64,000 nucleotides of DNA from Bacteroidota bacterium (GCA_016711505.1 JADJSV010000002.1:199674-263673); one strand, 5' to 3'; shown: positions 1,803 to 30,802, counted from the stretch's first letter. The notes: generated by a model not told the origin, from the letters alone. A program made the numbers and translations.

Positions 1803-3025
1803 AAAAAAATGGCATCTGTAAAACTCAAACTGTTCAAAGGCAAGGTACTGAAAAACGGGGAACATCCGATAGTGATTCAGCTAATCAAAGATCGCAAACG
1901 AAAGGTAATTTCTACCGGACGGTCCTGTCCAATTGAACATTGGGATGAGAAAGAAGGATTGCCTAAAAAGCAGCATCCCAATCGTGTCCAATTGACAACT
2001 TTCCTTTTGCATAAAAAGAAAGAAGCACATGACTTACACAATACCATTGAAACTGACAAAGGTTCATCCTATTCAATGGAGGAGTTTGAAAGGAAAATAT
2101 AGAAACGAGAATAAAAAAGCATCTTTCTTTAAATATGTCGATGAATTAGTTGCAAATTTCATTGCCACTGGACGAGTCGGGAATGCCAAAATTTATAAGG
2201 ATACCAAAAGAGAAGTCTATAAATTCCGCAATGGCCTTGATTTGGCATTCACCGACATTGATCTTAAATTCCTTAAAAGCTTAGAAAATTTTTTTCCGAA
2301 CACGAGGTTATAAAGAAAATACGATGAGTGTTTTTTTCAGAACATTGAGATCGATTTATAACAAAGCCATCATTGAGAATTATGTCAAGAAAAGTCTTTA
2401 TCCATTTGACATTTTTAAAGTTTCACAGTTTGATACAAAAACTCAAAAGAGAGCATTGTCTCAAATAGACATAAAAAGTCTAATTGAATATTACCCTGCC
2501 TTAGACAATCCACTCTTCAAATCTTATAGCTATTTTATGTTCAGCTTTTACATGATGGGAATGAATTTTCATGACATGGCTTTTTTAGAATGGGATCAGA
2601 TTAGTTCCGAAAAATTATCATACATAAGAGCAAAAACTAGAAAACATTTTGTAGTAAAGATTCTTCCTCCAGCTCAATCAATAATAGATATTTTCAAGAT
2701 AGCAAAAGAAGGTAAATATGTATTTCCGATTTTCAATGAATTAAAACATACGACTCCGCAATCCAAACATAACAGAATTAAAAAAGTTCTTAAAATGTAC
2801 AATAAAGATTTGAAAGAAATTGGAAGTGCATTAGAGATTAAAACACCTTTGACTTCTTATGTTGCCAGGCATACATGGGCAACTAGTATGAAAAAACTAG
2901 GCGCCTCAGTAGGAATTATTAGCGAAGGATTGGGACATGACTCTGAAGAGACAACTCAAATTTACTTAGATAGTTTTGGCAATGACGTTATGGATAAAGC
3001 AAATGAATTGCTATTAAAAATTTGA
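1803..3025 (+). CDS. Tyrosine-type site-specific integrase (Bacteroidetes phage/ICE integrase family). It is split into 3 frames, with two frameshifts near 2030-2100 and 2313-2324.
   Basis: Three consecutive ORFs (1743-2102, 2029-2313, 2324-3025) in frames 0/1/2 together give ~407 aa. The C-terminal catalytic region reads '...VARHTWATSMKKLGASVGIISEGLGHDSEETTQIYL' (R..H..R...Y motif region). The second junction lies at T7 homopolymers. Confidence 0.8.
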
Positions 3026-5502: not shown

Positions 5503-7449
5503 CTATGAAATCTTCAAAAACCTAGCATTAAAAGCCACAATAATAGTACTTAAACTCATCAAAACTGCACCTGCTGCCGGATTAAGCATTATTCCAAACA
5601 TGCCCGCTGCCAATGGAATAGCAACTACATTATATCCGGTAGCCCATATTAGATTTTGAACCATTTTCCTGTAGGTGGCCTTTCCAAAAAGAATAAGACT
5701 GACAATGTCTTCAGGATTGCTGTTTACTAAAACGATTCCTGCTGTCTCCGCTGCAATATCGCTTCCACTTCCAACTGCAATGCCGACATCTGCTTGCGCT
5801 AAAGCAGGAGCATCATTAACACCATCCCCGGCCATTGCAATGTACTCACCCTTTTGTTGTAGTTCTTTGATCTTGTCAAGTTTTTGATGTGGTAGAACTT
5901 CAGCATAATAACCATCCATATTTAATTGCCGGCTGACACTTTCAGCGACTTTATTATTATCGCCTGTTAAAAGGATCGATTTTATTTTGGCAACATGTAG
6001 TCTTTCAATTGCTCTACCTGATTCCGGACGTATTTCATCGGCAAGAGATATAAATCCACTTACTTTATCATTAACTAATACATACACAACCGTTTCATTT
6101 GGTTGACTGTCTTTAAGTAACATTTCAGGATAATTTTTCTGAATAAATGCCGGACTGGAAACTAAAACTTTAGAGTTGTTTATAATTCCAGTGATACCTT
6201 GCCCTGTAATAGCTTTAAACTCAGAAACAGGAAGTGGGTTCAATTTTCTTACATTTGCCTTTTTAACTATCCCTGTGGCAATTGGATGTTCGGAATTTTG
6301 TTCAAGTGAAAAAGCCATTTGAAGTATTAACTCATCATTGACAGACGAATCAAATGAACCATACCGGATCACATTGAAATTTCCAAAAGTAAGTGTACCC
6401 GTTTTATCGAATATAACTGTGGTAACCTTTCTGGAATTTTCAAATGCTGTTCTGTTTTTGATCAACAAACCATGTTTTGCAGACAAGGAGGTAGATTTTG
6501 CAACTACTAATGGCACAGCTAAGCCTAATGCATGTGGACAGCAAATTACTATTACTGTAACCATTCTTTCCATTGCAAATGCCAATGACTCATTTGCAAT
6601 AGACCACCAATAAAAGAAAGTAGATATACCTGCAGCTAAAGCTACGATAGTTAAAATTCTTGCCGCTTTGTCAGCGAGTAATTGTGTTTTGGATTTTGTC
6701 TTTTGGGCATCATTGACTAACTTAATAACACTTGCAAGATAAGAGTCTTTCGAAGGATGTGTGACAGAAATTTTTAAGGAACCATTTCCATTGATAGAAC
6801 CTGCAATCACTTTTTCCCCCTTTTGCTTTTTCACGGGGACCGATTCACCTGTAAGCATTGATTCGTTAATATAGCTTTCTCCATCTGAAATAATTCCATC
6901 GGCTCCAATCTTTTCTCCGGGTTTGATTAGAATCAGGTCGCCGATATTTAAGGAATCAACTTTAACTTCGTGGGTCATTTCACCTTTAATTAAATGAGCG
7001 CTTGATGGTAATAATTGTACCAGCAGTTCCAATTCTCTTGAGGCCCCGGCAATAGATTTCATTTCTATCCAATGTCCAAGTAACATAATTAGAATAAGTG
7101 TACATAGTTCCCAAAAGAAATCCATCCCTTGTAAACCAAATACAGTAGCAACACTATAAGCATACGCGACAGTGATAGCAATCGCAATCAAGGTCATCAT
7201 TCCAAAAGTTCTTTGCTGGAACTCATCAACAAGACCTTTCAGGAAAGGAAATCCTCCATATACAAAAACCACAGAGGATAAAGAGAAGAGAACATAAATT
7301 GAACCTGAAAAAGAAAAATCAAAACCAAACCATTTTTGGATCATAGGCGAAAGCAACATAACCGGAATAGTAAGGAATAGCGTTACATAAAACCTACGTT
7401 TAAAATCCTCGATCATCATTTTATGATGGTCATGGTGCATCATTCCCAT
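5503..7449 (-). CDS. Heavy-metal-translocating P1B-type ATPase, CopB-like (copper). The His-rich N-terminal leader is encoded in another frame at 7450-7516.
   Basis: Motifs TGES, DKTGTLT and GDGVNDAPAL are present, with CPH in TM6 and MSLST in TM8. The N-terminus reads MGMMHHDHH. Upstream, in an alternate frame, lies MEHQHQGHNNVEHSNH. Confidence 0.9.
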   Translation of the reverse strand: MGMMHHDHHKMMIEDFKRRFYVTLFLTIPVMLLSPMIQKWFGFDFSFSGSIYVLFSLSSVVFVYGGFPFLKGLVDEFQQRTFGMMTLIAIAITVAYAYSVATVFGLQGMDFFWELCTLILIMLLGHWIEMKSIAGASRELELLVQLLPSSAHLIKGEMTHEVKVDSLNIGDLILIKPGEKIGADGIISDGESYINESMLTGESVPVKKQKGEKVIAGSINGNGSLKISVTHPSKDSYLASVIKLVNDAQKTKSKTQLLADKAARILTIVALAAGISTFFYWWSIANESLAFAMERMVTVIVICCPHALGLAVPLVVAKSTSLSAKHGLLIKNRTAFENSRKVTTVIFDKTGTLTFGNFNVIRYGSFDSSVNDELILQMAFSLEQNSEHPIATGIVKKANVRKLNPLPVSEFKAITGQGITGIINNSKVLVSSPAFIQKNYPEMLLKDSQPNETVVYVLVNDKVSGFISLADEIRPESGRAIERLHVAKIKSILLTGDNNKVAESVSRQLNMDGYYAEVLPHQKLDKIKELQQKGEYIAMAGDGVNDAPALAQADVGIAVGSGSDIAAETAGIVLVNSNPEDIVSLILFGKATYRKMVQNLIWATGYNVVAIPLAAGMFGIMLNPAAGAVLMSLSTIIVAFNARFLKIS

Positions 7450-7607: not shown

Positions 7608-8096
7608 TTATAGGATTCTTCCATCAATGTTTTTTTTAGTATCCTCTAACATATTTTTCAAACACCAGTTACAATACATATTTGCGAAAAGGAAGGAAAG
7701 AAACTTATAGAACCATTGTTTTGGCGGCAAATAGCTAATAGAAAGTTTCGCGATAGTTGAATTTTCAAGTGGAGATAATTCAAACCACATTCGATACCAT
7801 GACATTATAATAATTTTAGCATCACCAATTGTCTCCCATTCTTTTAATAAAGGCGCTTGCCACTTGGTAATTGTTGTGGTGAAATAAATAATCATTCCTG
7901 CCATCTTTCCATACCAACGATATTTTGCTCCAACTCCACTTGAATTTTTCGATAGTTGTTCTAATTTTAATTTGCTTCCCATCATCATCATAGAACTTTC
8001 GCTCATGTGCATTCCTGTTTTTGAAAAATCATCCATTTGCTGAAAAACAATTTCAGGACTGGAATTAATTATAATACTTTTCGATTTTGTCTTCAT
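7608..8096 (-). CDS. Hypothetical protein, SRPBCC/polyketide-cyclase-like
   Basis: Weak resemblance to SRPBCC ligand-binding fold proteins. Met-rich patch SESSMMMMG. Confidence 0.3.
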   Translation of the reverse strand: MKTKSKSIIINSSPEIVFQQMDDFSKTGMHMSESSMMMMGSKLKLEQLSKNSSGVGAKYRWYGKMAGMIIYFTTTITKWQAPLLKEWETIGDAKIIIMSWYRMWFELSPLENSTIAKLSISYLPPKQWFYKFLSFLFANMYCNWCLKNMLEDTKKNIDGRIL

Positions 8097-8158: not shown

Positions 8159-9427
8159 TTATTCTTTCAACTGCGCTTCACTTAAATGCCTGTAAGCATT
8201 TTCTACCATAACAATTCCATCATCTACAATTACACCAATTGCCAAAGCAATTCCCGTAAGTGACATGATGTTGGAAGAAAACCCTAGAAGATTTAAGAGA
8301 ATAAAACTTGATGCAACCGAAACAGGAATTTGAATGAGAATTATAATTGCGCTTCGCCAATGGAAAAGAAAAATTAAAATGACTATAGTAACACTAATAA
8401 ACACTTCAACCAGTGTTCCCTTTACTGAACTAATAGCTTCTTCAATTAATCCACTTCTGTCATAATTAATTTTAAATTTCACGCCTTCAGGTAAACCTTT
8501 TTGTAATTCAGCCATTTTTGCCTTTACGTTTTTTATAACCTCATCAGCGTTTTCTCCGTATCGCATTACTACAATTCCACCGACTTTTTCGCCTTCTCCG
8601 TTTTCGTCAAAAATTCCGTATCGGATATCGCCACCCATTTGCACCGACCCAACATCTTTAATTCTTATGGGAACATTATTGGAAGTGCTAAGTGAAATAT
8701 TTTCAATTTCACCGATTGATTTAATGTAACCCAAACCTCGCACGATATATGACTTATCGCTCATTTCAAATTTTCGTCCTCCAACATCATTGTTATTTGA
8801 TTTTACCGCTTGCAAAACGTCCATCATTGAGAGATTAAAGAAGTTCAGTTTCACAGGGTCAATAATTACCTGATACTGTTTTTGAAAACCTCCGAAGGAG
8901 GCAACTTCACTTACTCCGGGAACTGTTTGTAAAGAAAACTTGATATACCAATCCTGCAAAGCACGTTGTTCGCCAAGATCATATCCTTTGGCATCTAACG
9001 AATACCAAAAGATATGGCCAACGCCTGTTCCATCGGGGCCGAGTGTGGGTGAAATTCCTTCAGGTAAAAGTTTCTGTGCAAAATTTAACCGCTCTGCTAC
9101 CCTCGTTCTAGCCCAATAAATGTCAACATTGTCCTCAAAAACTAGATATACGAAACTCATTCCGAACATAGATGAACCTCGGATATTTTTAAGTTTCGCA
9201 ATGCCTTGCAAATTTGAAACGAGTGGATATGTAATCTGGTCCTCGATTACCTGCGGGCTTCTCCCCATCCATTCAGAAAAAACAATTACCTGATTTTCGG
9301 ATAAGTCAGGTATTGCATCTACGGGGTTGTGCTGCACTTCGTAAAGTCCCCACCCTAACATGCCTGCTGCAAAAAGTAATACAACAAAGCGATTGCGCAA
9401 TGAGATTGATATAAGACGTTCAACCAT
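8159..9427 (-). CDS. czcA: CzcA/CusA-family heavy-metal RND efflux pump, N-terminal fragment only (residues 1 to about 420). It ends in the TM4-TM5 loop.
   Basis: The N-terminus 'NRFVVLLFAAGMLGWG...NPVDAIPDLSENQVIVFSEW' and the end '...AIGVIVDDGIVMVENAYRHLSE' align to CusA residues ~1-415. A stop follows, and then the next gene starts. Confidence 0.85.
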   Translation of the reverse strand: MVERLISISLRNRFVVLLFAAGMLGWGLYEVQHNPVDAIPDLSENQVIVFSEWMGRSPQVIEDQITYPLVSNLQGIAKLKNIRGSSMFGMSFVYLVFEDNVDIYWARTRVAERLNFAQKLLPEGISPTLGPDGTGVGHIFWYSLDAKGYDLGEQRALQDWYIKFSLQTVPGVSEVASFGGFQKQYQVIIDPVKLNFFNLSMMDVLQAVKSNNNDVGGRKFEMSDKSYIVRGLGYIKSIGEIENISLSTSNNVPIRIKDVGSVQMGGDIRYGIFDENGEGEKVGGIVVMRYGENADEVIKNVKAKMAELQKGLPEGVKFKINYDRSGLIEEAISSVKGTLVEVFISVTIVILIFLFHWRSAIIILIQIPVSVASSFILLNLLGFSSNIMSLTGIALAIGVIVDDGIVMVENAYRHLSEAQLKE

Positions 9428-9438
9428 TGTTGTTTGAA

Positions 9439-9708
9439 TTAGTGTTTTTTCATTTCAGATAATTCCATTCCACACTTTGGGCAATCTCCCGGTTTATCGG
9501 ATAGTACTTCTAGGTCCATCACACATTGGTAGAATGCTTCTCCATTTTTCAACATCGTTGTGTCAATATTGAAGTTTTGTGATGTGTTTTGACCTTGATT
9601 TGTTGTGGAATCGGGCAAAGTTCCTTTTTCACTTCTGTTTGATGAACTATTGCAGGCGCCTAGTAATATTATACTATTTAATGCTAGTAAAAGAATTGCA
9701 TTTTTCAT
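9439..9708 (-). CDS. Small lipoprotein with a C-terminal heavy-metal-binding domain (HMBD, CxxxDxxV...CPKCGM)
   Basis: Lipobox LLGAC. The C-terminus 'YQCVMDLEVLSDKPGDCPKCGMEL' matches the HMBD found at the N-termini of CusB-like adaptors. Confidence 0.65.
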   Translation of the reverse strand: MKNAILLLALNSIILLGACNSSSNRSEKGTLPDSTTNQGQNTSQNFNIDTTMLKNGEAFYQCVMDLEVLSDKPGDCPKCGMELSEMKKH

Positions 9709-9730
9709 TTATACTATTTACTTAGAGAGT

Positions 9731-10887
9731 TTACATTTTCATTCCCGGCATTTCTTGATGGCCTTCCATAGGGTTCGCTCCTTTTTTAAAAATATATTCG
9801 CTGTTCAATAAGTATGCACCTTTCACAACAACAACATCTCCTTCTTTCAATCCATCAATTATTTCAATTTGGCTACTGTTCTGCATACCTACTGTTACCA
9901 TTTTATTTTCAAACACTCCATCATTGTTTCTCACCCACACATTTGCTCCTTTACTATCCTGAACAATTGCATCTAAAGGCAGCACATAAGATTTTTTCTT
10001 TTCTGTTTGTAAGTTTATATTAGCTAACATTCCGGGCTTTATTTGTCTTGATGAATTAGTTAACTGAAATCTTGCCAAAACATACCGTTGTGGCGCTTGC
10101 ACTTGTGGATCAATAAAAACTACTTTCCCCGAAAACAATTCTTGAGTTGCAGCAGGAATAGAAAAACTAGCTTCCGTTCCAATTTTTATATAAGTTAAAT
10201 AGGGGAGATAGACTTGGGCTTCTACCCATAGTGCATTTATTGAAGCGAGTCGGAAAGAGTAGCGCCTGCTGAGACGTAATTCCCTTCATTAACAGATATT
10301 TCGCTCACAAAGCCCTCCGTTTTCGCAAACACCGGAATATTTTGCAGAATTTGCTTGGAGGTATTAAGTTGATCGATTTGCAATTCGCTCATTCCAAATA
10401 ACAGCAACTTATTTTTAGTGCTTTCGATAAAATCACCAGTTGAAAATGACTTTTGTAGAGCTAGCAAATATTCTTCTTGCGCCAAGTTTAAATCTTCACT
10501 GTAGATTTCATAAAGCATCTGACCTCTGCTAATGTATTCTCCAATGTTTCTTACGGCTAACTTTTCAATTCTTCCTTGGACTCTTGCACTGATAGCATCT
10601 GAAAGATTTTGGTCCACTGTAACTTTTCCTGTAAGGGTAATTTCTTTAGCCAACTCATGAACACGAACTGTGTCATATGTAATGTTACCTAATTGGATTT
10701 GTTGGGAACTTAGTTTTATTTGTCCCGTTTTGAGATTATTCCTTTTTACCTTAATCAGTTTCATGTGGCAAATTGGACAGTTGCCAGCTTTATTTTCTAT
10801 CACTTGCGGATCCATTGAGCATGTGAAATACTCATCTGATCCCGCCATCTCGGCCTGATTATTATTTTTTTTGCATGAAATTAGCAA
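9731..10887 (-). CDS. RND efflux membrane-fusion protein (CusB/CzcB-like) with an N-terminal HMBD. It is split into two frames (10237-10887 and 9731-10138).
   Basis: N-terminal 'YFTCSMDPQVIENKAGNCPICHMKL' (HMBD), followed by HlyD-family adaptor sequence and a C-terminal beta-barrel domain ORF in another frame. Confidence 0.7.
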
Positions 10888-10937
10888 CAGAATGGATGCT
10901 AAAAAAAAGCATCATGACTTGGTTTGCGATATTTATT

Positions 10938-12189
10938 TTATTTCTGTACATTATTTTCGGTTTGAATAAAGCTTTCGCTGTCTACCATAAATTGTGCATT
11001 GGCAGCAACCATTTCATTTTCTTTTAATCCGGATTTTATTTGAACCAATGAATCTGTGAAAGCTCCCGTTTGTATTAATTTAGTAACAAAACAGTTTTCT
11101 GATTTTACAAATACGATTTGATTATATCCTAAGTTTACAATTGCATTTCGTGGCAACCATATTCCCTTAATTTCTGATGAAGTAATATTAGCAGAAACCA
11201 GAGTACCTATTTTAAGTTGTCGGTCTTGGGAATTCTTCAAATACACTCTTGCTTTAATTGCAGAATAATTTTGACCGGCAACAGGTTCAATGTAACTGAT
11301 GGTGGATTGAATAACAGTAGTTGGATTTGCTTCAGTAGTGAGAGACTTTATCACCTATATTGATTAGTGCAGCATCTTGTGGAAATATATCCAACACTGC
11401 CCAAACCTGACTTATATTGTAAACCGAAAAAAATGCCTGACCACTTTGCAAATACATTCCTTCCTTAATTGAAAGTGCGGAGGTTCTTGAGGAGGAAAGA
11501 TTCTCAACTTGCATTTGTGTGGGCGATTCACTAGTTGTATTCATTCCTGAACTCATTCCATTCCCCTTGGAAGGTGCAGCAGAAGTAACTCCACTGCTAA
11601 TTCCTAAATCATGAATGTGCCCAGTATAAGGGCTGTATATTGGTAATGGATTTATCGGTTGTTTCGTGGTTTCAATTTGTTTAAGTTGTTCATTGTTTAA
11701 TCCTAGCAATTGTAATTTAGTTTTAGATGAATTGATGAGCGGAAAGTCCTTAATAGAACTGTTCAAAAGATAAATTAGATTTTGTTGTTCAGTCAAAATT
11801 TCCGGACTGTAGATATCCATGATTCGCTGACCTTTAAAAACATTTTCAAAATTGAAGCGCACATACAATTTTTCAATTCGCCCACTGAACCGTGCGCTGA
11901 TATTGTTGAGTGAGCGAGGATCGTAAACAATTACGCCTATTGCATTTAATCGGGGCGTGATCGTTTGTTGCATAGGTAGAATTGTTTTTACGTCACTAAA
12001 TACTGTTTGATTAGTTGGTTGTTCTAAGCCTTCCAACTCACTGGTCTTGTTTGCCTGAATGTGTTTGTGTTCGTCTCGGCTACTACAAGACGAGATGAAA
12101 ATCAGAATTGCAATCCCGATAAACACCGAGAAAGCAACGATCCCATTGCCTCTTGCCATGCCCTTATCGAATTTCCAATTCTTTTTCAT
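10938..12189 (-). CDS. RND efflux membrane-fusion protein (HlyD/CzcB family). There is a frameshift at the overlap 11332-11354.
   Basis: ORFs 11332-12189 and 10938-11354 overlap by 23 nt in different frames. The lipoprotein N-terminus and the adaptor coiled-coil/beta-barrel regions are both present. Confidence 0.7.
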
Positions 12190-13390
12190 ATTCTACTTGT
12201 AATTTAAAAAGTACATTCAATTGGTCTAATTCATTCATTTTTGCCATTCGATGCATCTTCAACGCATCAAGTACGACAAAAAGATCCTCTGTATTTTGCT
12301 CATAGGCAAGCATTGAGGTTTCATAACTCTTGAAATAGGTTGGAATTATCAGATTGGTATAATTAGTTAGTTGCTGCTTTGAATATTTCATTTGTGTCTG
12401 CAATGAGGCTATTTTCCCTGCTGTTTCATTGACAAGAGATTGTTTTTGATAACCTATAGCATTGAGGGTGTTGTTCAACCCTTTAATATTTGATTTGTAT
12501 TCTTTGGTTGCCCACGGCGCAATTGGAATTGTCATCATTCCCATTGCTGAATACTGATTAGGCATCATACCCAGTGATTGCATGTGACTTAGTGAAATTC
12601 CAAAGTCAGGCAAGCGTTTCGATTTTTCGTATTGCTGTTGGAATTTAAGTAAGCCAATATTTGCATCAAATTGTTTGATATCGCTGCGTGATGTTGTAAT
12701 AAGGAAAGTATCAATTAACTGCAATTCATAATCGTATGATATGAATGAGGTATCAACATCAAACTCATATGACTTGTCAATATTCATGAGAGTGTTAAGT
12801 TCAATATTTTTCATTTTCATATCGCCAACCAACATTGCTTCCATATTGCGTAATTCAAATAAGTCTGCCTGAGATTTGTAAATGTTATTGAGTTTTTCTT
12901 TGTTAAAGGTGAAACGATTTTGTGCAACCTGAACGATATAATTTAAAAGGGAATCGGTTTGCATCAATACATAGTATTTCTTTTGCAGCACTATCCATTC
13001 GTAATAATTCGTTTTAGCCATTGCGAACATTTCATTCTTCTTTGCAGCTTTTCCTTGTTGTTCAATTGAAGCCATGCCCTGCATAAATTGATAATTCGCC
13101 TTTTGTTTTGCAGGATTCGGAATCATTTGTTCTCCTGTTATCATCCACATCCCATCGCTAAAGTTTTTGTAGGGAGCTTGCCACGGACCTGTAGAAAAAG
13201 TGGGAGGCATCCAACTTTTTGCCATCTCCGAATAATTATTCGCAGCATTGATTTGCTCATCATACATTTTGAGCATTGGGTTATTACTTTCTATCCTACT
13301 CAAAACTGAGTCAATTGTCAACACTTGTCCGAATGTTTGAATTGCACAAACACAAAAAATAAATAGCAATATTCTTTTATTATTCTTCAT
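12164..13390 (-). CDS. TolC-family outer-membrane efflux protein (CzcC/CusC-like)
   Basis: Signal peptide, ~408 aa, with the typical OEP repeat composition. It overlaps the upstream czcA 3' end by 11 nt. Confidence 0.8.
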   Translation of the reverse strand: MKNNKRILLFIFCVCAIQTFGQVLTIDSVLSRIESNNPMLKMYDEQINAANNYSEMAKSWMPPTFSTGPWQAPYKNFSDGMWMITGEQMIPNPAKQKANYQFMQGMASIEQQGKAAKKNEMFAMAKTNYYEWIVLQKKYYVLMQTDSLLNYIVQVAQNRFTFNKEKLNNIYKSQADLFELRNMEAMLVGDMKMKNIELNTLMNIDKSYEFDVDTSFISYDYELQLIDTFLITTSRSDIKQFDANIGLLKFQQQYEKSKRLPDFGISLSHMQSLGMMPNQYSAMGMMTIPIAPWATKEYKSNIKGLNNTLNAIGYQKQSLVNETAGKIASLQTQMKYSKQQLTNYTNLIIPTYFKSYETSMLAYEQNTEDLFVVLDALKMHRMAKMNELDQLNVLFKLQVEYEKELEIR

Positions 13391-15326
13391 TTATTCCCGG
13401 CAGGATTATTTTTCCATGTTTTTTTAATTCTCTTTCCTTTCCCATTTCATAAATTATAGGTGTTACCAATAAGACATAAATAGTAGAAGTAATTACACCG
13501 CCAATCAAGGGAATTGTAATTGGCAACATCACATCGCTGCCCGTACCAGTTGACCAGAGTATAGGAATTAAGCCAAAGAGCGAAACGGAAACAGTCATTA
13601 ATTTTGGCCGCAACCGTTGAACGGCACCGTCCATTATGTATTTACGTAAATCAGCCTTTGAAATAGTTTCATTTGAATTACCTTTATCTTTAACCAACTT
13701 TTCCATATACTCATTAAGGTATATAACCATCAACATTGCTGTTTCAATTGCTACACCAAACAATGCGATAAAACCAACGGCAACGGCAACTGATAAATTC
13801 ACTCCATAGAAATAAACCATATACACTCCGCCTATTAATGCAAACGGAACAGTAATAATAGTCAGTAAAGCTTCTTTCAATGATTTGTAAGTAAAATACA
13901 ATACCATAAAAATGATAATAAGAACAATTGGCATTATAAATTTTAATGTTTTGTTCGCACGAATTTGATTTTCATATTGACCGCTCCATTCAAGGTTGTA
14001 ACCTTTCGGAAGTTTGGAAAACATTTTGTCCAATTTGTCTTGTGCTTCTTTCACTGTGCTTCCCAAGTCACGATCCCGTACATTGAACAATACTGTTCCC
14101 CGCAACATAGCGTTTTCTGAGTTAATCATTGGTGGACCTTCCGAAACAGTTACTTCAGCTACTGATGAAAGCGGAACGGTTCCATAATTCATAGTTTTTA
14201 TTGGAATTTGGTTTATGGCTTCTAAACTGTTTCTGTAGTCCTGTGCGAACCGTGCATTCACCGTAAATCGTTCTCTGCCTTCAATTGTTGTAGTTAGATT
14301 CATTCCCCCTAATGCAGTTTCAACATACATATTCACATCATCCACACTCAAACCATATTTCCCAATTTCGTTTTTTTTCACTGTAATATCCACATATCTC
14401 CCTCCTGTAACGGGTTCAACATATAAATCTTTAATGCCATTGATCCCTTGCAATTCATTTTTCATTTTTACCGCAAGAGTATAGATGGAATCTAGATTCT
14501 GTCCATAAATTTTCAATCCTACATCTGTTCTTATTCCTGTTGAAAGCATGTTGATTCGGTTGATAATAGGTTGAGTGAAACCGTTAACTACACCTGGAAT
14601 TTGCAACTTTGCATTCAATTCGTTAATTATCTCGTTCTTGGTTATACCGATTCTCCATTGTGCCTTTGGTTTCAATAGAATAATTGTTTCAATCATACTG
14701 ATTGGAGAATTATCGGTCGCTGTGTTTGCTCTGCCAGCTTTGCCTAATACATTTCCTACTTCAGGAACTGACATAATTAATTTATCCTGTACCTGTAAAA
14801 TTCTTTTAACCTCAGAATTTGATACATCTGGTAGTGTTACAGGCATGAACAGTATAGAGCCTTCATCCAATGGAGGCATAAACTCTGAGCCCATTCGAAA
14901 CAACATAATACCACCAACGGTGAGCGCTATTATATTTAGTGCTATTACTGTTTTTCGCCAATGCAAGCACCATTTCAAAATAGGAGAGTAAATCTTCTCC
15001 AAGACCCGCGTTACAGGGTTTGCACTTTCAGGTTTTAATTTCCCTTTTAGAATAAATGAAATCAAAACAGGTGCAAGCGTAATAGCAAGAAATGCATCAA
15101 TAATAAGTATGAAAGATTTTGTCCAAGCTAGTGGATGAAACATTTTTCCTTCAATACCGGTAAGTAAAAAAACGGGGAGAAAAGAGGTAATTACAACGAT
15201 GGTTGAATAAAACACACCAGGCCCTACCTGTTTCGAGGACTTTTCAATAATTTGTAATCGTTCTTTACTTTCCACCTTTGCAATTATTTTTAAAAAAATA
15301 GCGAAACTATTTATTAATAACAGCAC
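13380..15326 (-). CDS. czcA: CzcA/CusA-family RND pump, C-terminal fragment (about residue 415 to the end). The 5' ~50 nt of the ORF is AT-rich non-czcA read-through from a GTG.
   Basis: 'KERLQIIEKSSKQVGPGVFYSTIVVITSFLPVFLLTGIEGKMFHPLAWTKS' aligns to CusA TM5 onward, and the match continues to the conserved C-terminus '...MLPITIPLIGGVITSTIYVLLVTP'. Confidence 0.85.
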   Translation of the reverse strand: MLLLINSFAIFLKIIAKVESKERLQIIEKSSKQVGPGVFYSTIVVITSFLPVFLLTGIEGKMFHPLAWTKSFILIIDAFLAITLAPVLISFILKGKLKPESANPVTRVLEKIYSPILKWCLHWRKTVIALNIIALTVGGIMLFRMGSEFMPPLDEGSILFMPVTLPDVSNSEVKRILQVQDKLIMSVPEVGNVLGKAGRANTATDNSPISMIETIILLKPKAQWRIGITKNEIINELNAKLQIPGVVNGFTQPIINRINMLSTGIRTDVGLKIYGQNLDSIYTLAVKMKNELQGINGIKDLYVEPVTGGRYVDITVKKNEIGKYGLSVDDVNMYVETALGGMNLTTTIEGRERFTVNARFAQDYRNSLEAINQIPIKTMNYGTVPLSSVAEVTVSEGPPMINSENAMLRGTVLFNVRDRDLGSTVKEAQDKLDKMFSKLPKGYNLEWSGQYENQIRANKTLKFIMPIVLIIIFMVLYFTYKSLKEALLTIITVPFALIGGVYMVYFYGVNLSVAVAVGFIALFGVAIETAMLMVIYLNEYMEKLVKDKGNSNETISKADLRKYIMDGAVQRLRPKLMTVSVSLFGLIPILWSTGTGSDVMLPITIPLIGGVITSTIYVLLVTPIIYEMGKERELKKHGKIILPGINEE

Positions 15327-15383
15327 AAGTTACAATAAACAATTTTTTAAAATATGACTTCTGTCCTGTAATACAGCATATAA

Positions 15384-15602
15384 CTATTGCTTTACAACAC
15401 TTTCCAAGGCCATGTCACACTTAGGACAATTATCTGCTTTCGCTGAAATTACTTCCAAGTGCATTGGACACTGAAAAAATGTTTTTCCCGAATCAACTTT
15501 TGACGTGTCGAGAGTAAATGTGCTTGTTGTTGATCCATCTTTTGGTGATGAACACGCTACCATTAAAACTGCAATAGCGGAAATTACAAATGCTTTTTTC
15601 AT
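15384..15602 (-). CDS. Small lipoprotein with a C-terminal heavy-metal-binding domain (HMBD), paralog of 9439-9708
   Basis: Lipobox MVACS. C-terminus 'FFQCPMHLEVISAKADNCPKCDMAL'. Confidence 0.65.
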   Translation of the reverse strand: MKKAFVISAIAVLMVACSSPKDGSTTSTFTLDTSKVDSGKTFFQCPMHLEVISAKADNCPKCDMALESVVKQ

Positions 15603-15713: not shown

Positions 15714-17147
15714 TTATTGTCTGATAAATTTGCTTAACAATTCTCCCTTTTCTGTTTCAATTTTTAAAACATACATTCCATTTTCAGGAGAAATTTTCAA
15801 ATTTACTTCTCCATTGATTACCTGACATTTGCTGTTAATAGTACATTGCCCTAAAACATTTTCAATTTTAAAATTGTACTCTCCATCTGGAACCGCACTA
15901 AGTAGCATTTTAATTTCTTCAGAACCCGCGGGATTAGGATACAATAAAATTCTACCCGTTTCAACCACAGAAATATTTGTCGTCGGAATATAAATACCAC
16001 TTTTGAATTTTACAGTTCCTGAAATATCGTCTTGCCAAACGACATAGACATTTCCATCATGAATTGCAACGTCTGCGTTCACAACTCCTGCATTAGCAAT
16101 TGTGTCAGTTACCGGATTCAAGCCGTTATTTATATCAGATGAAAACCGTAATAGTGCTTTATTTTCACCTGAAACTGTTTCCTTCCACACTATTCCGACG
16201 GCAGACTCATAGTTTGAGATTCGTGGGTAGTTCTGATCATTATTACCTGATAATTGTTGAACAGATGTAAGCGACATATTACTGATAGACGAACTGCTGA
16301 AATAAACTTTTGGAGAACCACTTGCACCATTCATGAAAACCGAATACAGAGAATCTTCAACGATAACTCCATCTGGTCCCGTAGACGGACAAGCCATAAT
16401 CATCCAATTATTTAAATCAACATTCCAGCCGTTTGTAAACGATATAGCATTATCCATTGAGATACTTGTCCAGCTATCTCTAATATTGTTTAGGTTGTCA
16501 CGATAAAGCATAGCAACAGTATTTCCTTCGCTTACAATTGAACTCGGACAGCAATCACATACGACGCCACCTGACCAGCCACTTGCTAAAACATCTGTTA
16601 TAAAAGTATTTCCATAATCCGAAGATCTTGTTACCATCCATCTTGCATTTGAAAAGTTAGGATCCAATTTCATAAACCCAACTATTGGATTTCCTGAATC
16701 GTCTATTGTAACTGTTGGAAACCGACTAAGGTCAGGAGTAACGAAATCCACTTGAATTGGTGATGAAAATGACTGTCCACCATCAAAAGAACTGACAATG
16801 TAAATCGGGTTAACATCTTCGGGTGTTTCTTTGATCACAATGTAAACTGTATCTCCTCGTGAAGCAATGTCTGGCCCGGCCCAAGATGCAGTAAATACAG
16901 GGATTGAAGGTGGGTTGATCGTTATAGGGCTTGTAAACATTGTTCCGTTCCACTTGGAGAATTTACATTCATTTGACGATCCTTTTCCCCAAATAATCAT
17001 AGGATTTCCTGAAGCATCAGTAACAACTCTAGGATGAAGGTTCCCATCCATTGACATTGCAACGGTGACTTCAGATGACCATGTCACTTGCTGGGCATCT
17101 GCTCTTAGGATAAATAATATTGAGAGAAGTAGGATAAGATATTTCAT
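15714..17147 (-). CDS. Secreted BNR/sialidase-fold-like beta-propeller protein with a T9SS C-terminal sorting domain
   Basis: Signal peptide. The C-terminus 'LYPNPAGSEEIKMLL...GEYNFKIENVLGQ...MYVLKIETEKG' is a T9SS CTD. The body is Ser/Asp/Gly-rich, consistent with a propeller. Confidence 0.55.
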   Translation of the reverse strand: MKYLILLLSILFILRADAQQVTWSSEVTVAMSMDGNLHPRVVTDASGNPMIIWGKGSSNECKFSKWNGTMFTSPITINPPSIPVFTASWAGPDIASRGDTVYIVIKETPEDVNPIYIVSSFDGGQSFSSPIQVDFVTPDLSRFPTVTIDDSGNPIVGFMKLDPNFSNARWMVTRSSDYGNTFITDVLASGWSGGVVCDCCPSSIVSEGNTVAMLYRDNLNNIRDSWTSISMDNAISFTNGWNVDLNNWMIMACPSTGPDGVIVEDSLYSVFMNGASGSPKVYFSSSSISNMSLTSVQQLSGNNDQNYPRISNYESAVGIVWKETVSGENKALLRFSSDINNGLNPVTDTIANAGVVNADVAIHDGNVYVVWQDDISGTVKFKSGIYIPTTNISVVETGRILLYPNPAGSEEIKMLLSAVPDGEYNFKIENVLGQCTINSKCQVINGEVNLKISPENGMYVLKIETEKGELLSKFIRQ

Positions 17148-17155
17148 TTGTTAGA

Positions 17156-18883
17156 TTATAGTTTAATTATTTTACAATACTGAGATTTATGGTTGTCAGT
17201 AACTCTTAAAATATATATACCTGATTGAATACTGTGCAAGTCAATAATAAATTCTGATGAATTGTAATTCAATTTTTTTGAGAGAGCACAGTCTGGTTTG
17301 AGCTATTAAATACAGAGTATTCTATTTCTTTTTCAAAACCTTTCAGTGAAATCCTTACAGATCCGGAAACGGGATTAGGACTGCATTCTAACACTTCAAT
17401 ATTCTTACTTGGATTATTTATATCTGATGTTCCTGGTAAAACAACAAACGATCCCATCATACCATCATCTTCATGGTGTAGTAAATGACAATGATACATG
17501 TAAGGTATGGTGTCTGCAAAATCTTCAAACTTGGTTATAAAGGATACTGATTCATTAGGCATGACTAAAACAACATCCTTCTTCACTTGTTCTGAAACAG
17601 GAACAGAAATACCATTGACATCGGTGACATAAAATTGTACATCATGAATATGAAATGGATGGGCGATCAGTGTATTATTTATTAAAGTCCATTTTTCAAC
17701 ATGATTTAAATAGGTAGTATCGTTTATCGTATCCATACTAAATTGATGTCCATTGATTGTAAATGGACCTTCAACCATTTCCATCGGCCCCATAGTTTGT
17801 GGCGCAAAAACGATATCTCTTGTTCTGTTTATCAGACTAGCATCAATTGGTTGGAAATTAACTAATGAAGTTGGAATAGAGGTAACGGATTAAGTGTTGG
17901 GGCAACAACATTTATTTCAAGAAGATCATAATCCGCACCATTTAAGAAATTCAGGTTGTAGTCGGGAATTTGACTCATTCCATTTCCAACATTTTGAGCA
18001 CCTAGAATTCCATCAGGTAATCCACTGCCGTAATTCATCATTGAAATAGTTTGCCCCTGCATTCCGGTAAGATCAATTAGAATTTCAGCTCTTTCTCCGG
18101 GTGATAATTGTAATCGGTTTTTTGCAATAGGGGATCTAACTAAACCACCATCCGTTGCGATTTGATAGAAAGTCATATTGTTTGAGAAACCAAATAAGAA
18201 TGAACGATCAGATGCACCATCGAGTAATCTAAAACGCACAACTTGCGCAGGTGCATTAAAAAAAGCATCGATGGTCGCATTGATCATTGGCACAGTATCA
18301 AACACAGTAGCAATTGCTGTCTGATATAGTACATCAAAACATTTGGTCTGAACTATAAGTGGAACATCATCTATTCCATAAGTTCTCGTAAATTCAATGC
18401 TGATTCAGCACTGTCTTTCACTATTATTAATCCTGCAAGTCCTTTTGAAACTTGAATATCAGTACGATTTTGACCATGTGGATGATACCAATATGTTGCA
18501 GCATCATTCATTACGGTAAATGAAGGCGACCAGGTTGCTCCCGGCATGATCATTTGGTGTGGACCACCATCCGCATGTGCAGGAACATGTAAACCATGCC
18601 AGTGCATAGTTGTAACCGGTGGAATATTGTTTGTTACATTCAGTGTTACATTGTCACCTTTATTTAAAATCAACGTTGGGCCAAGAATGTTTCCATTAAC
18701 ACCATAAGTCGGGGTTTGATGGCCTGCAAAAAATTCCGTTGAATCCGCTTGAACCGTTAAATTGAAATTTGTACCCGACAAAGTGGGTGGAATAAATAAA
18801 GGATTTTGTGAATACGATTTATTAGCAATGACGAAAAGGATCGTCACTGCTAATAAATTGAATATTGATTGTTTGTTTTTCAT
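17156..18883 (-). CDS. Multicopper oxidase (three-domain laccase/CueO-like) with a T9SS C-terminal sorting domain. It is split over about 4 frames.
   Basis: Domain 1 carries HWHG and WYHPH. Domain 3 carries HPFHIHD and HCHLLHHEDDGMMG (T1/T2/T3 copper ligands). The tail '...EFIIDLHSIQSGIYILRVTDNHKSQYCKII' reads in another frame after an A7 run. Confidence 0.8.
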
Positions 18884-25234: not shown

Positions 25235-26458
25235 CCTGATTAGTCATTTTGGCTAATAGAAAAAATGCGCCATTCACTACTACTTTGCTGTTTTGAGGTA
25301 TATCCTGAAGCAATGAAATCTCAGAATAGCCAATATCGGTAGTCCCTTTTTTAATTGCTATTCTTTCAAATGTAAGAGAGCCTTCAGGTAATTCTTCATG
25401 ATGCTCATGATCATGTGCCTCCTCACTTTTTCTGCGGTTGAATGCTTTTCTTCTGCTTCCTTTTCAGTTACAATAAATATAAAGTCTTGTCCTTCACTGC
25501 TTACAATAGCGTTTGTTGGTATTGCATCAACAGTGGCATTCTCTAAACTAACTAAAGCTGTAATACTCATTCCGTCAATCAGACCTTGCCGATTACCTTT
25601 TACGGTAGCATGTACTGCTATTGCTTTAGTACTTTGTTCAAATGTATTGCTGATTGCAAAGACGTCTGCATCATACTCCTTACCGGGATTGTTGGTTAAC
25701 GTAAAGTGAATAGTTTGAGCTACTTTTAATTTTGCCAAATCCTTTTCATATACATATAAATCCAAATGCAGTTGATCATTATCTACTATTTCAGCAATAG
25801 GATTATTAGCTTCTACATAACTTCCTATGTTAACAAGTACATTACTTATCGCACCATTGATTGGACTTTTTATATTTGCAACAGATTGAATGTTGTCAGA
25901 TGTAATATTCTCTGTATTAAAACCAATTAATTCCAACTGTTTTCTTAAACTTGATTTTCTCGCTTTTAAGGACTTTAATTCTGATTCGGCACTTTGCAGA
26001 TTTTTCAAAGCGCCTGCATTTCCCTGCTGTAAATCTTTTTGCCTTGCAAGTTCCTGTTCTGCAAATACGGATTTTGCAGAAACATTTATGAATTCTTCTT
26101 GCATTATTATAAATGAATTGTTTGAAATCGTTGCTATCACTTGTCCCTCTCTAACTTCATTTCCGGTTTGAACTAGAATCGATTTAATTACTCCGCCCAA
26201 TGAAGCAGTTGCAGTAGCTCTATTTTGATTGGGTACTTTGAGAATACCATTGGCCTTTAATGAAGCCGTTAACTGCTTTTTCTCAATATTTCCTAATTCT
26301 ATTTTGATTGATTTTATTTGTTCCGGTGAAAGCGAAACCGAATTTGAAAACTCCTCTGATTCATGATGCTCGGTTTCTTCTTCCTTGTGATTATGATTAT
26401 CTTTACAGGAAGCAAAAAATGTCAGTGCAATAGCTGCTATGGTGATTATGTTTTTCAT
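25216..26458 (-). CDS. RND efflux membrane-fusion protein (CzcB-like). There is a frameshift near 25440, and the true C-terminus extends to about 25216.
   Basis: The 366-aa ORF gives lipoprotein plus adaptor domains. An alternate frame gives the conserved end 'EGSLTFERIAIKKGTTDIGYSEI...VVVNGAFFLLAKM'. Confidence 0.75.
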
Positions 26459-26465
26459 TTTAAGA

Positions 26466-27665
26466 TTATTTGTTAAGTAAGTAATTTAAATTTATCACAG
26501 ACTGATTCATTTGATTGACAGCATTGAGATAGGCAAGTTGTATGTCAATTGCTGTTTGAAGAGCATTGAGATACTCGATATAACCAATTTCGCCGGACTT
26601 TAGACCAACGCTAGCTGTATTGGTAACAACATCTGAATTGTTTAATCCTGTTGATCTATAATAGCTATAGACAGAACGACTCTGCTCATACTTATTCAAT
26701 GCATTCTGAAAATGGACTACAATATCCGTTTTCATTTTTTCTTTCTTTTACTAATGATTGCTGCCTGAATTTATAAGACTTGATCCGTGAACTGCTGCTA
26801 AAGAAAGTCAGAGGTATATTAACACCAAAATTAAATCCTGTAAATCGTTTATCAGATTCATAGTAAACTTCGCTACCATTTACATTCTGAAAACCAATTA
26901 TACTTTGATTGTTATATCCAATACTAAATTCAGGAAGAACATTTGCAGATTCTACTTGCTTTGTTTTCTCCGCAATCAAAGCCTCTTGAAATATCAGTTT
27001 TAATTGAGGATTTTCATTGAGAAGGAAGTGTCCGTTAATTCTGTAAGATTAAAAATCAATGTGTCTGCTTCCGGGATCAACACAAATTCATCTTTTAGAT
27101 TTAAAAGTGATTTTAATGAAAGATAGACTTCTGAATATTCTCTTTCGTATTGTGTCTTTAAGATAGTTAATTGTCCCCGTTTTGATTCTGCTGTTGCTTT
27201 CTCTAGCAAATTACTTTCACCGCTTTTATAACGTACTTCAGAAGCACTTACAAAATTGGAATAAAGGCTATCAAGAGAATTGAGTTTAACATTTACGTTT
27301 CGTAAATACTGCATTTGATAAAATAACGATCTTATTCGCGTTCTGACTTCATTGATTTTTGCATTCCCTTTTAGCTCTGCACCTTCAAATTCTGCTTTAT
27401 ATAAACCAGCCTTTGCTGAATAGACCGTAGGAAAAGGAATATTTTGCTGAATTGACAATCCGTTATCCTTATTGATGCTATTATATTGACCGTATTGATA
27501 TTGAATCTCTGTTTTAGGAAGTTCAAATACAGATTTTTTTAATGCTGCTGAGGATTTTATATTAAGTTGTTCAGATTGGATTTCTAAATTGTCTTTTAGT
27601 GCTTTATTTATTGCATCAGGCAAACTCAGATTTTGCTGAGCATTTACTTTAAATGACTTAAGCAA
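26466..27665 (-). CDS. TolC-family outer-membrane efflux protein, fragmented into 3 ORFs
   Basis: ORFs 27000-27665, 26692-26979 and 26466-26735 together give OEP-like N-terminal, middle and C-terminal segments. Confidence 0.7.
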
Positions 27666-30600: not shown

Positions 30601-30802
30601 GGATAGGTTACTAATTGTTCAACTTCCTGTCCGGCAAGTGTAGGACAAACAGTGATGATTTGAACTTGATTATTTGTGATGTCAGGTACTGCATCAATTG
30701 AAAGTTGGGTTGCACTCCATACGCCCCAGATTATTAGTGCAAAAGTCATCAAACCAATGATGAACTTGTTTTTATGCTAAACGCAATTATTTTATCGAGC
30801 AT
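27644..30802 (-). CDS. czcA: CzcA/CusA-family heavy-metal RND efflux pump, second copy. It is full length but lies in at least 4 frames.
   Basis: ORFs 30099-30752, 28819-30000 and 27644-28843 cover the N-terminal, middle and C-terminal parts. The true N-terminus MLDKIIAFSIK (30802) is recovered upstream in another frame at an A-run. Confidence 0.85.

Follow-up and report, generated by a model that had tools for sequence, protein, structure and literature searches.

Two small HMBD lipoproteins in a copper operon

The window analyzed here is a 64,000-nucleotide stretch of DNA from a Bacteroidota bacterium (GCA_016711505.1 JADJSV010000002.1:199674-263673). Between positions 9439 and 15602 it carries two small genes, which we call lipo72 and lipo89 after the lengths of their products. 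Each encodes a predicted lipoprotein with a heavy-metal-binding domain (HMBD). The two genes belong to an apparent operon for a resistance-nodulation-division (RND) pump. The gene order on the minus strand is a multicopper oxidase (MCO) gene, a gene for a 477-aa protein sorted by the type IX secretion system (T9SS), lipo72, cusA-C, the gene for an outer-membrane factor (OMF), the adaptor genes MFP1 and MFP2, lipo89, cusA-N, a gene for a 162-aa protein and a P1B ATPase gene (Table 1). As the first-pass annotation of this DNA had noted, one small gene is located directly 5' of each RND piece. The distance from the lipo89 stop codon to the cusA-N ATG is 11 nt, and that from the lipo72 stop codon to the cusA-C GTG is 108 nt. 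The gene order is unchanged in two further assemblies, which are 97.0% and 97.6% identical to the window. Both small proteins are labeled 'hypothetical protein' in the source record, which is that of a Bacteroidota metagenome-assembled genome (locus tags IPL24_), and newer records name their relatives 'heavy metal-binding domain-containing protein'.

Profile searches with Pfam HMBD (PF19335, gathering score 23.6 bits) matched lipo72 (38.5 bits, E 1.1e-9), lipo89 (35.1 bits, E 1.3e-8) and the adaptor MFP2 (36.7 bits). A six-frame scan found exactly three HMBDs in the window, and all three are in this operon, so chance is not an issue. lipo72 is composed of a signal peptide, a lipobox (C17), a linker and one HMBD with core residues 43-67 (nt 15402-15476). 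lipo89 contains a signal peptide, a lipobox, a linker rich in Ser, Thr and Asn, and one HMBD with core residues 59-83 (nt 9460-9534). The signal peptides up to the lipobox Cys read MKKAFVISAIAVLMVA and MKNAILLLALNSIILLGA, and the lipobox sequences read LMVAC and LLGAC. The lipobox Cys is invariant in the family of small proteins. Judged from these sequences, lipo72 and lipo89 are exported, lipid-anchored proteins, which agrees with the domain architecture first described for the 72- and 89-aa open reading frames (ORFs). The Pfam scan of the two proteins returned HMBD only, and nothing of the CusF family.

lipo72 and lipo89 are 42% identical, and have in common an extension before the domain, FxLDTTKLxSGxxFYQC. 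Alignment of 19 small proteins of this kind revealed an invariant set C-x-M...C-P-x-C-x-M, which corresponds to C45, M47, C59, C62 and M64 in lipo72. The first motif differs between the two proteins. It is CPMH in lipo72 and CVMD in lipo89, the His of the former being replaced by Asp in the latter. The CPxH..CPxCxM motif initially ascribed to both proteins is thus present in lipo72 only.

Both genes are under purifying selection, with dN/dS values of 0.13 for lipo72 against the gene of its orthologue P0010 and 0.16-0.28 for lipo89 against four orthologues. An identical lipo72 protein is present in independent assemblies. These data bear on whether the small ORFs are relic N-terminal stubs of adaptor or ATPase genes, left behind when this region was rearranged and frameshifted. 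Many genes are broken in this assembly, including MFP1, MFP2, the MCO gene and a second RND pump at 27644-30752, and HMBD is usually the N-terminal domain of larger proteins. The small ORFs are nevertheless complete, and each has a signal peptide, a lipobox and a stop codon of its own. Independent assemblies contain them unchanged, and homologues of the same size are encoded by an isolate genome and dozens of metagenomic loci. Their conservation and dN/dS values refute the relic explanation for practical purposes, and we consider it extremely improbable.

The HMBD module has a solved fold (PDB 8OVL) with genuine binding of Cu(I)/Ag(I). The N-terminal domain of Legionella CopA (LpCopA), analyzed by nuclear magnetic resonance, is composed of a three-stranded sheet and a rubredoxin knuckle, Ag(I) or Cu(I) is placed on M44, C59 and M61, and the domain resembles the N-terminal site of SilB (PMC11970713). 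A profile built from the 19 small proteins matched the LpCopA structures 8OVL (E 4.7e-10) and 3RFU (E 1.5e-8). In an AlphaFold2 model of lipo72, residues 41-70 have pLDDT values of 85-88 and the remainder is a low-confidence linker. The top match of this model in a Foldseek search of the PDB is 8OVL, with a root-mean-square deviation of 1.0 Å over 31 columns, a TM(target) of 0.76 and a probability of 1.0. The N-terminal structure of SilB (5A4G) matches less well, at rank 43. The structural prediction called for in the first-pass annotation therefore supports the HMBD assignment over residues 41-70 of lipo72.

LpCopA C42, M44, C56, C59 and M61 all align with conserved counterparts in the small proteins. 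The equivalents of M44, C59 and M61 in lipo72 are M47, C62 and M64, which are invariant in the family and are the predicted ligands. C45, H48 and C59 of lipo72 occupy positions like those of a zinc ribbon. We infer that lipo72 and lipo89 are Cu(I)/Ag(I) binders of the HMBD fold, with a predicted trigonal Met-Cys-Met sulfur site.

A CusA-like pump encoded by two genes, and its adaptors

Rather than a single polypeptide with 12 transmembrane helices (TM), the RND pump is encoded by two genes about 4 kb apart and in reversed order. cusA-N covers residues 1-422 of E. coli CusA. It contains TM1-TM4, the PN1 and PN2 domains and the equivalent of D405, and ends in the cytoplasmic loop between TM4 and TM5. 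cusA-C contains TM5-TM12, the periplasmic PC1 and PC2 domains, the Met triad for Cu/Ag, and the equivalents of E939 and K984. The proton relay D405/E939/K984 is therefore conserved, with D405 in cusA-N and the other two residues in cusA-C. For cusA-C, the score with E. coli CusA is 568 bits and that with ZneA 307 bits, and M573, M623 and M672 of the triad are conserved. The TIGR00914 scores of the N and C pieces alone, 471 and 612, are each below the 701-bit family cutoff. The pieces had been annotated as czcA; by score and by its Met triad, the pump is CusA-like (Cu/Ag type) and not Czc-like. The P1B ATPase encoded nearby is of the copper type as well.

The two products together measure 422 + 631 = 1053 aa. 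Over 99-100% of this length they align with fused homologues of 1051-1054 aa, and the identity is 75-76%. The two genes have the same nearest relatives. Compared to a related locus with the same arrangement (L011), dN/dS is 0.024 for cusA-N and 0.039 for cusA-C at a dS of about 1.8, and the GTG start of cusA-C is the same. Pseudogene debris or a misassembly, suggested by the position of the C piece before the N piece, was also considered for the RND pieces and ruled out. The layout is present in independent assemblies and in a lineage whose DNA differs by about 22%, dN/dS is 0.02-0.04, the two pieces together are full length without loss, and 60 other loci have the same split with their own start codons. 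The pieces are not fragments but a functional two-gene cusA under strong purifying selection.

From the cusA side we collected 80 metagenomic loci, containing relatives of the N piece at 57-94% identity. The state of the gene could be determined in 71. The N and C genes are adjacent in 60, separated by a 0.8-kb spacer in one, fused in seven, permuted like those of the window in two, and unclear in one. The split products measure about 425 aa (N) and 635 aa (C). The junctions vary in sequence. Every C gene begins with a start codon of its own, located mostly -4 to +7 nt from the N stop codon and including 12 ATGA overlaps. The N and C genes of the isolate Mucilaginibacter lappiensis ATCC BAA-1855 (L039 8247-11461), for products of 441 and 630 aa, also overlap by ATGA. 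Parsimony on a neighbor-joining tree of 199 sequences gave at least 15 changes between split and fused states, an approximate count because the fused set was enriched by retrieval. The cut site is in the cytoplasmic TM4-TM5 loop, not at the boundary of the internal repeat. We found no description of split RND pumps in the searchable literature.

The reversed order C-OMF-MFP1-MFP2-HMBD-N was found only in the lineage of the window (window 8159-15275; L011; L104; L105; L152). The flanks of the permuted cassette vary by lineage and consist of an oxidase gene, an oxidase fragment, lipo72, an ATPase gene or housekeeping genes. No att-like repeats or other marking repeats were found at the flanks of the breakpoints and pieces. 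In L115, the closest relative without the permutation, the N piece has the tail SEAQLKE, as in the window. The order in the window is therefore best explained as a swap of the blocks [HMBD-N] and [C-OMF-MFP1-MFP2] at intergenic breakpoints. An earlier model, in which a circular operon was opened inside an intact czcA and inserted beside lipo72, was replaced after adjacent split genes had been seen in L039, L085 and L115. With such genes as the starting point, the rearrangement needed intergenic breakpoints only.

The adaptors are related to CusB. Matches to HlyD_D23 and HlyD_D4 indicate the barrel-sandwich and hairpin domains of CusB. The ORF at 10237-10887, reported initially as an adaptor fused to HMBD, does contain HMBD at residues 20-47 together with the CusB-type HlyD_D23, but it covers no more than the front of a 395-aa gene, MFP2. 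Alignment against solved structures placed M35, C50 and M52 of intact MFP2 at the positions of M49, M64 and M66 in E. coli CusB (precursor numbering; M21, M36 and M38 in the mature protein). The CusB-type N-terminal metal site is present in MFP2 and absent from MFP1 of this lineage. The N-terminal fragment of CusB (CusB-NT) exchanges Cu(I) with CusF and is its established acceptor; the isolated fragment is described as competent for CusCBA activation (PMC6235853).

Two different CusB-like adaptors in tandem are also found in L017, L019 and most of L104-L183. In most relatives both carry an N-terminal HMBD, which was lost from MFP1 in the lineage of the window. The tandem arrangement is reminiscent of the dual-adaptor system TriAB.

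The reading frames of several genes are interrupted in this assembly. Compared to the 97%-identical assemblies, indels of 1-2 nt are found at 11345, 10908, 10256, 18388, 17886, 17286 and 7454, mostly in homopolymers or TC/CT repeats, and break MFP1, MFP2, the MCO gene and the start of the ATPase gene. In MFP1, 2 nt are missing from a TC repeat at about 11345; the gene is intact (417 aa) in L001 and L002. MFP2 has 1-nt indels in T-runs (10908, 10256) and is intact (395 aa) in L002, the 97.6%-identical assembly. These breaks are most likely errors of long-read assembly rather than signs of pseudogenes.

Table 1. Positions of the copper-related genes in the window
Feature	Position (nt)	Strand	Basis and remarks
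Copper-type P1B ATPase, CopA-like, His/Met-rich N-terminus, without HMBD	5503..7449	-	TIGR01511 574.7 bits
162-aa protein, no family match	7608..8096	-	no Pfam/NCBIfam match; partner of P1B ATPase
cusA-N, 422-aa N-terminal pump gene	8159..9427	-	TIGR00914 positions 1-427
lipo89, 89-aa lipoprotein (predicted)	9439..9708	-	ORF; Pfam HMBD 35.1 bits
Adaptor MFP2, CusB-like lipoprotein, N-terminal HMBD at nt 10747-10830	9731..10918	-	Pfam HMBD + HlyD_D23
Adaptor MFP1, CusB-like, without HMBD in this lineage, two ORFs here	10938..12189	-	
Outer-membrane factor, TolC/CusC-like, 408 aa	12164..13390	-	Pfam OEP E 1.2e-12; dN/dS 0.06 vs L011
cusA-C, 631-aa C-terminal pump gene, GTG start at 15275	13380..15275	-	TIGR00914 positions 431-1042
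lipo72, 72-aa lipoprotein (predicted)	15384..15602	-	ORF; Pfam HMBD 38.5 bits
T9SS-sorted protein, 477 aa	15714-17147	-	
Multicopper oxidase, T9SS sorting tail, three ORFs here via indels	17269-18883	-	575 aa, intact in L002

Small HMBD genes beside cusA-N and their proposed role

Of the 80 loci, 76 contain enough upstream sequence to analyze the region 5' of cusA-N. An earlier contig scan seeded with the HMBD motif was dropped for context statistics, the motif being mostly inside P1B ATPases and multicopper oxidases. A small HMBD ORF was found 5' of cusA-N in 28/76 loci, with its end within about 400 nt of the start codon and usually within 130 nt. In the window's own clade of the neighbor-joining tree, a small HMBD gene is located directly before cusA-N in 7/7. 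All 28 small proteins have signal peptides, 14 of them have a lipobox, and some contain 2-5 tandem HMBDs. The same position is occupied by a small HMBD gene in L011 and in the isolate M. lappiensis (L039; gene HMBD81), as well as beside the fused cusA homologues of L017, L018 and L015/L016. The HMBD-N pair also remained adjacent across the operon permutation. Conservation next to RND metal pumps, set beforehand as the observation on which the idea of a pump-associated metallochaperone could fail, is thus found for lipo89.

Other small genes occupy the slot 5' of cusA-N in related loci. They encode proteins of the HYC_CC_PP family NF047658 (~19 loci), DUF3347-like lipoproteins of 205 aa (~10), exported HMA proteins (L117, L165) and ArsR-type regulators (L176, L177, L179). 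The variety of occupants suggests that the slot is a variable accessory position for small metal-binding proteins, which are exported and rich in Cys and Met. In Bizionia, exported MerP-like HMA proteins adjoin CusB (PMC11213822), and in L117 and L165 it is the very slot of the small HMBD genes that exported HMA proteins fill.

The position of lipo72 beside an RND piece is not conserved. The orthologues P0010 (68% identity) and P0012 (63%) each follow a multicopper-oxidase gene directly, and neither has an RND pump in its vicinity. In L011 and L104, the closest lineages in which the operon is permuted in the same way, the C piece is preceded by an oxidase gene or fragment instead of lipo72. 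No enrichment of lipo72-type genes beside cusA-C was found in any other lineage of this sample. From its oxidase-linked orthologues and its absence before the C piece of L011 and L104, lipo72 looks like a member of the oxidase/ATPase part of the island, and its adjacency to the pump like a by-product of the rearrangement. The genes for the MCO and the T9SS-sorted protein at 15714-18883 are its ancestral neighborhood.

This distribution makes it very unlikely that lipo72 and lipo89 are both dedicated chaperones of the RND pump, one for each piece. Such a division of labor would fit the layout of one apparent operon in which each small gene is directly 5' of an RND piece and shares its strand, the subfamily-specific extension common to both proteins, and the identical layout in several independent assemblies of the species. 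Against it stand the pump-free loci of the lipo72 orthologues and the two permuted operons that have no lipo72 before the C piece. In addition, translation of the C piece is coupled to that of the N piece in 60 related loci, where no gene separates the two, which leaves no pattern of one chaperone per piece.

We therefore favor different roles for the two proteins. We give an even chance to the reading in which lipo89 is the Cu(I)/Ag(I) carrier of the pump, lipo72 is its paralogue in the oxidase/CopA branch, and both are binders of the HMBD fold. Probably at least one of the two hands copper to the pump in place of CusF. We infer the following transfer partners, direction and subcellular location, together with metal binding and a separate role for lipo72. 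lipo89 would take Cu(I)/Ag(I) from the periplasm, and ligand exchange would transfer the metal to the N-terminal HMBD of MFP2, which is homologous. The Met triad of the two-gene CusA would receive the metal next. lipo72 would most likely shuttle or buffer Cu(I) for the multicopper-oxidase/CopA cluster. The CusF-like delivery proposed in the first-pass annotation is accordingly retained for lipo89, for which the ligands, export, synteny and the MFP2 site speak, and not for lipo72 at the pump.

A phmmer search with E. coli CusF found no CusF-like ORF in the window or in the 80 related cusA loci and matched three proteobacterial loci; the search covered operon neighborhoods only, which is one of the points to be held against the favored reading. 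With HMBD as the only Pfam match and no CusF match in the window, lipo89 would be a functional analogue of CusF at most, and not a member of its family. Like lipo89, CusF is a small exported protein encoded in a cus operon, and uses soft ligands to bind Cu(I)/Ag(I) and to exchange it with the N-terminal site of the adaptor (PMC6235853). It differs in being a soluble OB-fold protein with H36, M47 and M49 as ligands and W44 as a cap, whereas lipo72 and lipo89 are predicted lipid-anchored proteins with a rubredoxin-knuckle HMBD and a Met/Cys/Met site. There is no relationship in sequence or fold between them.

Other known systems resemble parts of the proposed relay. CusB-NT and SilB's N-terminal metal-binding domain (SilB N-MBD) are homologous modules. 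They are always fused to the adaptor and bind metal with Met residues only; here the module is also encoded by a separate gene and three Cys are kept. The N-terminal domain of LpCopA belongs to the same Pfam family and fold; its core is about 42% identical, and its ligands are conserved. It is a cytosolic autoinhibition sensor fused to a P1B ATPase, whereas the small proteins here are exported, free-standing and predicted to be lipidated. CopZ and Atx1 resemble them in being free single-domain carriers with the fold of the transporter's own domain, in that case the HMA domains of P1B ATPases. Their fold is ferredoxin-like with an MxCxxC motif, and CopZ is cytosolic. One paper applies the name 'HMBD PF19335' to an HMA-type chaperone of plastids, whose motif and fold are, however, HMA-like.

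Further observations also count against delivery by lipo89. A small HMBD gene fills the slot 5' of cusA-N in only 37% of the related cusA operons, indicating that the protein is accessory and not obligatory. Stand-alone HMBD genes are also found away from pumps, beside a TonB receptor/PepSY gene, MCO genes and ATPase genes. The HMBD of LpCopA is a regulatory sensor and not an ion donor (PMC11970713), and the fold alone thus does not imply delivery. As Bacteroidota lipoproteins, they may be sorted to the inner membrane, the outer membrane or the surface. In the searchable literature we found no biochemical or genetic work on free-standing HMBD proteins. The earlier remark that their role is uncharacterized holds in that no study of such proteins was found there.

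The small HMBD proteins might instead be non-specific periplasmic buffers or sponges for Cu(I)/Ag(I), like PcoE, SilE and CopK, which would lower the level of free metal with no defined partner. Exported forms with 2-5 tandem repeats and no other domain, which are common, would suit this role. Among the best 150 matches in a protein library, 57 of the 66 small proteins contain at least two HMBD copies and 55 of the 66 have signal-like N-termini; several multi-repeat forms are located 5' of cusA, and small HMBD genes are found in varied copper contexts. Yet the placement 5' of cusA-N is tight, mostly at 0-130 nt, conserved in orientation and retained through rearrangement, and the adaptor has the same domain where CusB accepts metal from its chaperone. 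One site per protein of 72-89 aa also means a low buffering capacity. Buffering alone is for these reasons unlikely.

A trans-acting regulatory switch, which when loaded with metal activates the pump or relieves its inhibition without donating substrate, appears decidedly unlikely. The sensing and autoinhibitory role given to the HMBD of LpCopA, and the sensor role cited for SilB N-MBD (PMC11970713), are consistent with such a function, as is the competence of isolated CusB-NT for CusCBA activation (PMC6235853). However, the adaptor already has its own HMBD in cis, and an extra copy in trans is not obviously needed for switching. No sequence feature separates a switch from a donor, and the two roles are not mutually exclusive.

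A broader form of the relay proposal would join it to the split permease in a copper pump that is modular throughout. A relay from a free HMBD to the adaptor HMBD and to the CusA triad would replace CusF, and the RND protomer would be assembled from TM1-4 and TM5-12 polypeptides. The free HMBD would then be a natural trans-acting version of the N-terminal switch of CusB. The cut would be non-symmetric, gene fission would have flipped many times in Bacteroidota, and the halves would be tolerated in reverse order at opposite ends of the operon. We put this joint reading forward tentatively, as possible but short of an even chance. Neither a relay between domains of the same fold nor an RND permease of two polypeptides was found described in the searchable literature.

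Surroundings and significance

HMBD is a large family, with 15,110 representative clusters matching the profile at E <= 1e-3. Among the best 150 of these matches, 66 are proteins of at most 200 aa. The protein library contains many exported proteins that consist of 2-8 tandem HMBD repeats and nothing else (L145 6187-6909; P0181-P0329). In Chryseobacterium, oxidase fusions of about 930 aa contain HMBD (L027, L031, L035).

Downstream of cusA-N, the 162-aa protein (7608-8096) is 50% identical to the product of a 161-aa gene located before a copper ATPase in the distant locus L018 (12791-13276). It is an uncharacterized partner of the copper ATPase. A second RND system, composed of RND, OEP and adaptor genes, is located at 25358-30752 on the minus strand. 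Its permease (27644-30752) is in three ORFs, with breaks at Pfam ACR_tran positions ~210/263 and 641/647, and its OEP is also truncated. These breaks are not at the TM4-TM5 loop, and therefore look like frameshift errors or decay and not like a natural split.

A block of about 25 kb (5503-30752) contains two P1B ATPases, two RND systems, a multicopper oxidase and several T9SS-sorted proteins. A tyrosine recombinase (Phage_integrase) is encoded just outside it, at 2324-3025 on the plus strand. The block may be an integrative metal-resistance island. A scan for sigma-70 promoters gave 54 sites against 57.5 in shuffled sequence, which is no enrichment, with a consensus that is not applicable to Bacteroidota. 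Terminator-like matches are in modest excess (17 against a shuffle expectation of 9.8, sd 2.6).

Many bacteria have Cus-type pumps but no CusF; in the flavobacterium Bizionia, for example, CusF was looked for and not found (PMC11213822). A free copy of the adaptor's metal site, conserved directly before the pump gene, is a concrete candidate for a replacement. Exported proteins consisting only of HMBD are a sizeable uncharacterized group. The naturally split CusA, which is under purifying selection, is a natural experiment on how an RND protomer folds and assembles and on which of its loops tolerate a chain break.

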